Positions 17,401 through 18,437 of a stretch of 64,000 nt of DNA are shown here, piece after piece. The position numbers and the translations under genes are program-made. The DNA comes from Patescibacteria group bacterium (GTDB taxonomy: Bacteria > Patescibacteriota > Minisyncoccia > JAHIHE01 > JAGLIN01), in contig JARGGI010000001.1 in NCBI GenBank assembly GCA_029210775.1, positions 16,493-80,492 on the forward strand, given 5' to 3'. The notes under the pieces are model-generated. The model worked only from the letters and a program-made list of their open reading frames with translations. It made no database searches and was not told the origin of the DNA. Positions within the stretch are counted from its first letter, which is position 1. Every line of letters begins with the position of its first letter.

Positions 17401-18437
17401 TTTGCTTGTAAAATATATTTTTCAACTTCACTGTAGTTTTCAATATTATCTTTTAATTTTTCAATTAAACTGTGTTCGGGCGATAAGACCATATAAGTAC
17501 ATCCGAAAAGAGTGTCGGGGCGAGTGGTGAAAACTTTAATGCTACTGTCATTGCAAGCGGAGTGAAGCAATTCTGAATTTATAGGCGAAACCTGTATTTG
17601 ACTGGATTGCTTCGTCGCTTTGCTCCTCACAATGACAGAAAATTTAATTTCTGCTCCCTCTGACTTTCCAATCCAATTAATTTGTTGGGTTCTGATTTTA
17701 TTTAAATAATCAACCGAATCTAAATCTTTAATTAATCTGTCAGCATATTTTGTAATTCTCAGCATCCATTGTCTCATTACTTTTCTTTCTGCTAAGGCAC
17801 CACATCGCTCGCACGCACCATTAACGACCTCTTCATTAGCTAGTCCAATTTTGCAACTGGGACACCAATTAATCGCCATCTCTTTTTCATAAGCAAGTCT
17901 ATGATTATCAATAAATTCTTTTTTTTCAATTTCATTCAAATTTTTTGGAATTTTTAAATCTTCAATCGGTTTTGCTTTATCTGATTTTTTATCATAAAAA
18001 CTATTAAACAGTTTCAAAAAAATCCATTGCGTCCATTTATAATATTCTATGTCTGTAGTGTTAATTTCTCGCGACCAGTCAAAACTAGGTCCATAACTTT
18101 TTATTTGGCGTGTAAAATTTTTAATATTATTCTTCGTGACAACTTTTGGATGAGTTTTTGTTTTGATGGCAAAATTTTCCGTAGGCAAACCAAAAGCATC
18201 CCAGCCAATTGGGAACATTACATTATATCCACTCATCCTCCTTTGGCGGGCAACAATGTCAATGGCAATATGACTCCGAAGATGTCCTACATGAAGCCCT
18301 GCTCCAGATGGATATGGAAATTCAATTAAACAATAATACTTTGGTTTTTTTGTAAAATCTTTTGCATCATATATCCCACTTTTATCCCATTTATCTTGCC
18401 ATTTTTTTTCAATATTTCTAAAATTGTATTGTTTCAT
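14373..18437 (-). CDS. leuS: leucyl-tRNA synthetase, 1354 aa, with embedded Nudix, ASCH-like and HAM1/ITPase domains plus a MITE-derived in-frame insert
   Basis: HIGH=HVGH, CP1 [9 protein letters not shown], KMSKS present, C-terminal anticodon-binding region; perfect Nudix box [23 protein letters not shown]; HAM1 blocks [10 protein letters not shown] / [22 protein letters not shown] / [12 protein letters not shown]. Confidence 0.9.
   Translation of the reverse strand: [1354 protein letters not shown]
17545..17638. repeat. MITE-like palindromic element (TGTCATT family) inserted in-frame inside leuS CP1
   Basis: CTGTCATTGCAAGCGGAGTGAAGCAATTC...GGATTGCTTCGTCGCTTTGCTCCTCACAATGACAG; encodes [33 protein letters not shown] between EIKF and VFTTRPDT. 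Confidence 0.8.

Follow-up and report, generated by a model that had tools for sequence, protein, structure and literature searches.

A TGTC-tagged palindromic repeat dimer lies in frame at a recurrently occupied turn of leucyl-tRNA synthetase in Patescibacteria

In this study, a 64,000-nucleotide stretch of DNA from a Patescibacteria group bacterium (assembly GCA_029210775.1, contig JARGGI010000001.1, positions 16,493 to 80,492 of the forward strand; hereafter the window) was analysed with respect to its leuS gene, which encodes leucyl-tRNA synthetase (LeuRS) and contains a palindromic element within its coding sequence. An initial annotation had described this element as a copy of a dispersed palindromic repeat lying in frame at the start of the editing (CP1) domain, and the present analysis bears this out. 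The product of the open reading frame (ORF) matched TIGR00396 with 929 bits against a cut-off of 548 (E 1.9e-279) and its CP1 editing domain matched PF13603 (E 9.8e-55). Moreover, the terminus of the 94-nt element, TGTCATTGCGAG, counted with at most two mismatches, was found 23 times in the window, as against 2.9 times in shuffled sequences (shuffle maximum 7). The coordinates of the gene, the element and the related repeats are collected in Table 1.

Table 1. The leuS gene, its palindromic element and related repeats, in window positions; the last three rows are leuS loci used for comparison, in the coordinates of those loci (L numbers denote DNA loci)
Feature	Position	Strand	Remarks
leuS ORF	14373..18437	-	1354 aa, bacterial LeuRS; palindromic insert and three large inserted segments (NUDIX, unassigned of ~150 aa, Ham1)
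Palindromic element	17545..17638	.	94 nt; dimer of two TGTC-tagged hairpin units, tags outward
Short (S-type) unit	17545..17573	+	29-nt arm CTGTCATTGCAAGCGGAGTGAAGCAATTC; S/L typing by reading of the sequences
AT-rich spacer	17574..17603	.	30 nt, between the two units of the leuS copy
Long (L-type) unit	17604..17638	-	35-nt arm GGATTGCTTCGTCGCTTTGCTCCTCACAATGACAG; coding strand CTGTCATTGTGAGGAGCAAAGCGACGAAGCAATCC
Codons 268-297	17547..17636	-	wholly element-encoded; predicted coil, predicted local distance difference test (pLDDT) ~50-66
Codons 262-267 (AEIKFS)	17637..17654	-	strand 1 of host beta-hairpin
Codons 299-309	17511..17543	-	hairpin strand 2, then intact threonine-rich editing-site motif
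Solo intergenic unit	30934..30970	+	TGTCATTGCGAGGAGGTACGACGTGGCAATCCC
Intergenic cluster	33452..33850	.	units and dimers, including full dimers 33492-33607 and 33616-33732
Second intergenic cluster	41331..41697	.	inverted relative to 33452-33850 (arms 85-97% complementary)
Solo full dimer	53390..53496	+	~107 nt, diverged, between two genes
leuS locus L128	3001-6648		hairpin codons ~254-314
leuS locus L129	1097-4693		hairpin codons ~254-314
leuS locus L130	3001-6597		hairpin codons ~254-314

The ends of the leuS copy form a perfect 9-bp terminal inverted repeat (CTGTCATTG / CAATGACAG), and as single-stranded DNA the element folds into one long hairpin of -19.2 kcal/mol (z = -3.6), a stability reached by 0 of 200 shuffled sequences. 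Its L-type unit shares 88-91% identity with the units at 33573-33605, 33698-33730 and 33768-33802, all of which are intergenic. The tail of the L-type unit reads GCAAT-CCA and that of the S-type unit is degenerate (TTC); in the intergenic copies the tail is GCAAT-CCC. The element is free of stops in a single frame out of six, the one that leuS uses. Beyond the wholly element-encoded codons, the element also supplies the final two bases of codon S267 and the initial two of codon S298. The peptide on the coding strand is stop-free and lies between AEIKF and the block on the VFTTRPDT side, exactly as initially written, and the 1354-aa ORF is unbroken, which confirms the claim that the reading frame was preserved.

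The position of the insert within LeuRS could be located precisely. The HMMER alignment of the protein breaks in two exactly at the insert. In the Thermus thermophilus enzyme (1H3N), the matching turn consists of five residues (237-241) between AEILFPV236 and R242; since AEILFPV ends at 236 and the next block starts at 242, the insert replaces the five-residue hairpin turn at the entrance of the editing domain. In the LeuRS structure this site is next to the hinge strands by which the editing domain is positioned. The editing motifs (TTRPDT and the GTG..AHD motif) are intact and align identically to those of T. thermophilus LeuRS. Furthermore, an AlphaFold2 run of residues 160-450 with 48 aligned sequences gave a strand at 262-270, a coil at 271-298 (pLDDT blocks 66, 56 and 60) and a strand at 299-304, with values of 77-96 over the rest of the editing domain. 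Mapping onto a structure had been proposed as a check, and it places the insert at the 237-241 turn as a predicted coil on an intact editing domain.

The host protein is also unusual in other respects. It exceeds the usual length of LeuRS by about 500 aa because whole domains are embedded in it, namely a NUDIX domain at aa 468-559 (segment ~440-600) and a complete Ham1/RdgB ITPase at aa 1004-1188 (E 1.8e-56), along with a segment of about 150 aa (~641-790) that had no Pfam match and looks ASCH-like by eye. Other domain combinations, including alpha/beta hydrolase and ASCH, are found in the LeuRS of relatives. An identical protein from a Patescibacteria metagenome-assembled genome is listed at NCBI under the name 'RdgB/HAM1 family pyrophosphatase'. 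No relevant paper was returned by a literature search on domains inserted in the LeuRS of the candidate phyla radiation.

Within the window, the full intergenic dimers follow the same plan as the leuS copy, with a short unit, an AT-rich spacer and a long unit, and leuS and intergenic copies alike are bounded on both outer sides by the TGTC tag (CGTC in L003, an orthologous locus). The spacer measures 51 nt in the 33492 and 33616 dimers, as compared with 30 nt in leuS and 9-30 nt in the orthologue inserts. At gathering thresholds, Rfam reported only rRNA and tRNA genes in the window. The clusters at 33452-33850 and 41331-41697 flank a 7.5-kb block of surface-protein genes (VWA, signal-peptidase-like and SdrD/SpaA-like domains) with no transposase between them. 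A second TGTC-tagged hairpin family, (A)TGTCATTCTGAATTTATTTCAGAATC, is present at 11238-11304, 34466-34532 and 38312-38360; it has a plain stem, ATTCTGAA/TTCAGAAT, and is nearer to the published CGTC unit plan.

The unit is also widespread outside the window. A scan of one genome per species with the pattern TGTCATTGCGAG-N(6-24)-GCAATCC returned at least 120 DNA stretches, and the matches listed came from Alpha-, Beta-, Gamma- and Deltaproteobacteria, Rickettsiales, Chloroflexota, Bacteroidota, Cyanobacteria, Firmicutes, Planctomycetota and Patescibacteria, commonly with several copies per locus. Among these listed matches, 117 distinct units had a variable part ending in CGAA or CGTG, which was usually a self-complementary hairpin whose sequence differed between copies; the mean minimum free energy of the units was -6.1 kcal/mol, compared with -4.3 when only the variable part was shuffled. 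The plan of the unit is accordingly a TGTC tag, a 5-bp ATTGC/GCAAT outer stem that directly follows the tag in all units, a GAG/CG(AA|TG) internal loop, a variable and covarying inner hairpin of 2-10 bp and a CC(A/C) tail, with a total length of 27-43 nt. A kink-turn reading of the conserved internal loop was tried by eye, did not fit and was dropped. For 149 units among the matches listed, the median open stretch across the unit was 146 codons, against 344 at random positions, which shows that the units are mostly intergenic.

If the insert length is taken to be a multiple of three, the three phases of the unit differ clearly in what they encode. The phase GTC-ATT...AAT-GAC, which is used by the leuS copy, yields a hydrophilic VI...ND peptide; the next yields CHCE...LAMT, which is Cys/His-rich or hydrophobic, and the third runs into TGA in the far tag (..AA TGA CA). 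The first phase was used in all in-frame copies seen in this study and in those of the supplement to the work on CGTC-tagged repetitive extragenic palindromic (REP) sequences (Di Nocera, De Gregorio and Rocco 2013, BMC Genomics 14:522; PMC3733652). Together with the mostly intergenic location of the units, this use of a single phase indicates that selection evidently filters both the phase and the position of the copies, as judged from the sequences that survive. That every insert seen is open and in phase also points to read-through translation and not to bypass. In-frame copies in the same phase were observed in unrelated bacteria as well, in genes identified by eye from conserved motifs: a dimer in UvrA (SVIASKAKQSHSTGSANNGIATSPLAPRND; L030 1761-4490, - strand), a dimer in PurQ (L124 5918-6769, - strand) and a single unit in KsgA/RsmA (L057 867-1808, + strand). 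Both orientations occur in frame there, with the short unit before the long one in UvrA and the reverse order in PurQ.

The same turn was surveyed in LeuRS orthologue proteins of 120 relatives (P numbers, the first 120 orthologues) and in a further 71 LeuRS loci taken from metagenomes (the second set). In the first set, the segment from NWIG to TTRPDT has 31 aa in lineages across the tree, with patterns such as EVEF-RIKNYESR-IRVF, and this spread identifies the short turn as the ancestral state; in the second set, 45 of the 71 loci have a short segment of 29-33 aa. Related palindromic inserts were found at the turn in P0002, P0005, P0006, P0007, P0008, P0009, P0037, P0082, P0104, P0105, P0116 and P0117, and inserts of the TGTC/CGTC type, including the classical VIPxKxGIQ type, in 6 of the 71 loci. 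At least four types of unit are represented (VIAS.., VILS/VILR.., VIPVKTGIQ and VILEQ..). Elsewhere the turn carries other simple repeats (ISNFQF.., SPLERGQG..) or whole domains (NUDIX, Ham1-like, alpha/beta hydrolase), and in P0045/P0047 (L127 10800-11350) a GxxExxY PD-(D/E)XK nuclease (PF13366) lies in frame, as does a DUF559 endonuclease in P0078. The occupants range from 8-residue remnants to 200-residue domains. The proposed alignment with insert-less orthologues was informative, the closest of these being P0003 (75% identical), which has an 8-residue turn.

Two observations concern the nuclease insertions and a further site. Each of the nuclease insertions (P0045/P0047 and P0078) is flanked by its own, differing repeats; the idea that the palindrome might be the empty shell of a GxxExxY PD-(D/E)XK element was rejected, as the L127 gene is flanked by other repeats and has no TGTC-tagged arms. 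Additionally, P0107 carries a classical CGTC-1-type unit (VIPAKA..AGIQ) at aa ~1031, between RFLEKVW and LNKTIKKV, a position that corresponds to the Ham1 site of the window LeuRS (aa ~985-1003) and constitutes a second shared insertion site.

The DNA of these inserts behaves differently from the surrounding gene. Over six LeuRS loci, where the amino acids are identical, third positions agree in 36 of 38 and 48 of 51 cases (94-95%) at the element termini, compared with 66 of 115 and 49 of 150 (33-57%) in the host motifs NWIGxSxGA and FTTRPDTxFG. A synonymous-site identity so far above that of the host motifs means that the termini are held or renewed at the DNA level, and the conserved residues of the insert peptide are those dictated by the DNA termini. 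Moreover, the leuS copy of the window aligns better with the intergenic copies of its own genome (scores 40.5 and 40) than with any orthologous insert (at most 35). Against the inserts in L002, L004, L005 and L006 it gives the better alignment when these are reverse-complemented, and its long unit lies 5', whereas it lies 3' in all other LeuRS inserts compared. The junction is offset by one codon in L004. The spacers of L002 and L003 are homologous, which indicates that some inserts are inherited.

A direct view of turnover was given by L128, L129 and L130, whose flanking DNA is 90-100% identical (60/60 in some 60-nt blocks). Among the three, the site is taken up by a REP dimer, by an AAATTC microsatellite or by nothing beyond an empty turn of the ancestral type, and the divergence starts right after NWIG and ends at VFTTRPDT. 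In this comparison the flank identity changes partner across the hairpin, being 60/60 with P0018 upstream and 60/60 with P0011 downstream, a switch that suggests recombination breakpoints at this place.

Taken together, we consider that the leuS element is a tolerated, translated selfish dimer of the REP type (CGTC/TGTC-tagged) in a permissive surface turn of LeuRS, and we assign this reading a probability of about 0.78. A dimer of what is probably a non-coding selfish repeat occupies the codons for the beta-hairpin turn that leads into the editing domain. As its length keeps the frame and it lies in the hydrophilic GTC-ATT...AAT-GAC phase, it would be translated as a disordered surface loop of about 30 residues on an otherwise intact LeuRS, and it would persist as a tolerated passenger that is probably near-neutral. 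The same turn is a hot spot across Patescibacteria for REP sub-families, simple repeats, a nuclease gene and enzyme domains, presumably because the loop is structurally permissive; in most lineages the turn is still short. The units may move as single-stranded hairpins by means of a tyrosine (HUH) transposase or by recombination.

Several findings weigh against this reading in its simplest form. The insertion is not a clean one. Relative to the ancestral turn the filled alleles are short of 5-6 codons, for which simple transposition offers no account, and on the strands at either side they differ in residues from the empty ones: over P0001-P0054, filled alleles mostly read xVKF...xEVF (K..E) and empty ones EVEF...IKVF (E..K). 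No clean empty site for the insert was found, and no target-site duplication accompanied it. The population variants proposed as a check were not seen: metagenomic data yielded no contig from the same population, whether carrying the insert or lacking it, and the best match was 62% identical over the segment. The ORFs neighbouring the clusters at 33452-33850 and 41331-41697 yielded no transposase, which is a partial test, and no dedicated transposase is known for CGTC REPs (PMC3733652). The stem of the window unit is interrupted (5-bp outer stem, internal loop and inner hairpin, 27-43 nt), unlike the continuous 8-9 bp stem with a 4-5 nt loop of families CGTC-1 to CGTC-4, and its VIAS/VIAR...PRND peptides are not listed in the supplement of that work (PMC3733652). 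Finally, the inverted orientation of the window copy is deduced from the asymmetry of the arms in a near-palindrome, and it may have arisen by inversion in situ.

The features of the filled alleles suggest that the whole hairpin cassette is at times exchanged by recombination, and they lead to an explanation that partly overlaps the selfish-dimer reading, in which the REP dimer entered the hairpin once or a few times and the whole allele, strands and insert together, spread by homologous recombination between Patescibacteria. The conserved NWIGKSEGA and the downstream motif codons would serve as arms, and genomic REP copies would overwrite the insert by gene conversion. This is a real but tentative possibility. 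The xVKF...xEVF and EVEF...IKVF flanks do not follow the LeuRS tree; the GATVKFPVIL start of P0005 and P0007 recurs in P0116, whose overall identity is only about 50%; the divergence of L128, L129 and L130 is limited to the hairpin, with partner switching across it; and the homologous spacer of L002 and L003 likewise fits inherited inserts. However, the several REP sub-families, the differing junction codons and the inverted window copy require several independent origins in any case, the intermediate flanks (K..K in P0001 and P0005, E..E in P0006 and P0043) fit gradual compensatory change, and no donor allele identical to any recipient was observed. Far less weight is given to the notion that the insert is a LeuRS loop of ancestral, lineage-specific origin whose likeness to the repeat is incidental, or else an artefact of assembly, which we regard as very improbable. 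Related peptides do stand at the same position in many orthologues, an observation that, according to the initial annotation, would speak for an ancestral loop. Nevertheless, the synonymous-site conservation of the termini, the intergenic copies in the same genome, the patchy distribution beside a short ancestral-type turn across the whole tree, the same kind of insert in independent assemblies from many samples and the turnover among L128, L129 and L130 all contradict it. The comparison at the DNA level shows these peptides to be recurrent insertions or replacements by one repeat superfamily and not an ancestral loop.

The initial annotation had also called the insertion tolerated or exapted. 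Of these, tolerance accords with the data; exaptation, by which the REP peptide would have gained a LeuRS function such as binding of tRNA or a partner or tuning of editing-domain movement and would be kept by selection on the protein, is not supported and is very unlikely. The insert stays open in many lineages and adjoins the hinge strands, as a functional loop might. On the other hand, the insert peptides are 28-55% identical where the LeuRS cores are 77-84% identical and do not scale with relatedness, their conserved residues are fixed by the DNA termini down to synonymous sites, the model is a low-confidence coil, both orientations occur, and near-identical genomes lack the insert or have unrelated sequence there. 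Similarly improbable is the classical MITE (miniature inverted-repeat transposable element) of the initial annotation, which would have arisen by deletion from an insertion sequence and be moved in trans by a DDE transposase through recognition of the 9-13-bp terminal inverted repeats. The perfect terminal inverted repeats, the length of 94-117 nt, the AT-rich core, the lack of an ORF and the presence of several copies would suit such an element. Yet no direct repeat was seen at the leuS copy (TGCTA|CTGTCA...TGACAG|AAAAT) or at 53390-53496 (TTGAA|TGTCA...TAACAG|TAAAG), the ends of both being uncertain by 1-2 nt; single units standing alone (30934; L180, L057) and tandem or nested arrays are the behaviour of REPs and bacterial interspersed mosaic elements (BIMEs); either arm forms a tagged hairpin of its own, in which the inner stem covaries; no insertion sequence with these ends was seen, the transposase search having covered the ORFs around the two large clusters; and the plan of tag, stem and tail matches CGTC REPs. 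The MITE label was therefore imprecise, and the element is better described as a tags-outward dimer of TGTC-tagged hairpins.

With regard to the rest of the window, two-copy direct repeats of 83-167 nt and 83-92% identity were noted at 9555-9721/26067-26233, 3324-3461/31769-31906 and 13004-13086/14334-14416, the last pair overlapping the 3' end of leuS. An rRNA operon occupies 233-7375 (16S, tRNA-Ile, tRNA-Ala, 23S and 5S); its 23S match covers 3059 nt, compared with 2925 positions in the model, and may contain about 130 nt of extra sequence.

These findings extend the Rickettsia-style phenomenon of translated selfish palindromes in essential proteins to Patescibacteria (candidate phyla radiation) and concern a sub-family of tagged hairpins that is found in many phyla among the scan matches listed. 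They have a practical side, since the insert splits LeuRS profile alignments in two and the embedded enzyme domains mislead annotation. The recurrent use of one permissive loop is a natural experiment on the insertion tolerance of an aminoacyl-tRNA synthetase, and near-identical genomes with and without the insert offer a tractable case of how repeats move. The hot-spot behaviour of the turn and of the Ham1 site, and the mosaic LeuRS itself, are the more interesting part as compared with the single insert. It is conceivable, and we put it forward tentatively, that the turn at the editing-domain entrance is a hyper-variable landing pad in Patescibacteria and not a loop that chanced to catch one repeat. 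If cassettes were exchanged across conserved flanks, or if REP hairpins seeded captures, a concrete mechanism would be provided for multi-domain mosaic enzymes in reduced genomes.

The phenomenon as such is known from Rickettsia and from CGTC REPs; what is new is the Patescibacteria host and the sub-family. A tag of CGTC, often TGTC, or else CCTC, a stem starting with AT and a tail of approximately CCA characterise CGTC REPs, which occur mostly as tags-outward (HH) dimers with spacers of 20-100 bp and include R. conorii RPE-4 and RPE-6 and Neisseria dRS3 (PMC3733652). Some are in frame, where the dimers code for 20-30 aa that start with V-I/M and end with N/H-D, as in IleRS, GlyRS-beta and uvrA (PMC3733652). 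The leuS element resembles them in its TGTC tag, the A-T pairs at the first two stem positions and the CC(A) tail, and the window family resembles them in being dispersed and mainly intergenic, with spacer-containing dimers and some in-frame copies. It differs in the interrupted stem, which sets it apart as a distinct sub-family from CGTC-1 to CGTC-4, and in its range: the published repeats were found in five phyla, mostly in Alphaproteobacteria (PMC3733652), whereas the present host belongs to Patescibacteria and the sub-family extends over many phyla. Neither NCBIfam nor Pfam contained a match, at E up to 10, to the window insert peptide or to seven peptides related to it; when a protein database was searched for other host proteins with a 40-aa consensus insert peptide, five word-sharing candidates were obtained, none of which reached a score, and a literature search with the terminal sequences gave unrelated primer matches only. 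On the grounds of the interrupted stem, the peptides that are not in the published list and the lack of a match to curated models or Rfam, the family was filed as a new sub-family and not as a classical MITE.

The Rickettsia palindromic elements (RPEs), reportedly the subject of Ogata et al. in 2000 (Science 290:347) and 2002 (Genome Res 12:808), are the closest parallel. RPEs are described as selfish palindromes lying in frame in unrelated, often essential genes, with extra peptides judged compatible with fold and function (PMC10969869). The leuS insert is similar in that it lies in frame in a hairpin turn and is modelled as a coil, with the neighbouring domain folded and the motifs intact. 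Unlike RPE-1, which is about 150 bp long with a conserved encoded peptide, the window-type peptides match no NCBIfam model at E up to 10, a collection that includes the RPE1 domain model TIGR01045. The host is not Rickettsia, and one site is used repeatedly by different sub-families; no such report was found for RPEs in a search that lay outside the original papers. Hairpin-prone inserts in essential coding sequences are also represented by the byp elements of Magnusiomyces capitatus mitochondria and the gap of T4 gene 60, which the ribosome bypasses and for which an open frame is not required; the present inserts share with them the short, hairpin-prone nature and the essential host gene, but every insert seen here is open and in phase. 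Lastly, the short tagged hairpins, dimers and mosaic intergenic clusters of the window are similar to the REP/BIME sequences of the E. coli type, which are thought to move as single-stranded hairpins. The latter are distinguished by a GTAG tag and by genes for REP-associated tyrosine transposases (RAYT, TnpA-REP), of which the partial test made here found no counterpart, nor any other transposase.

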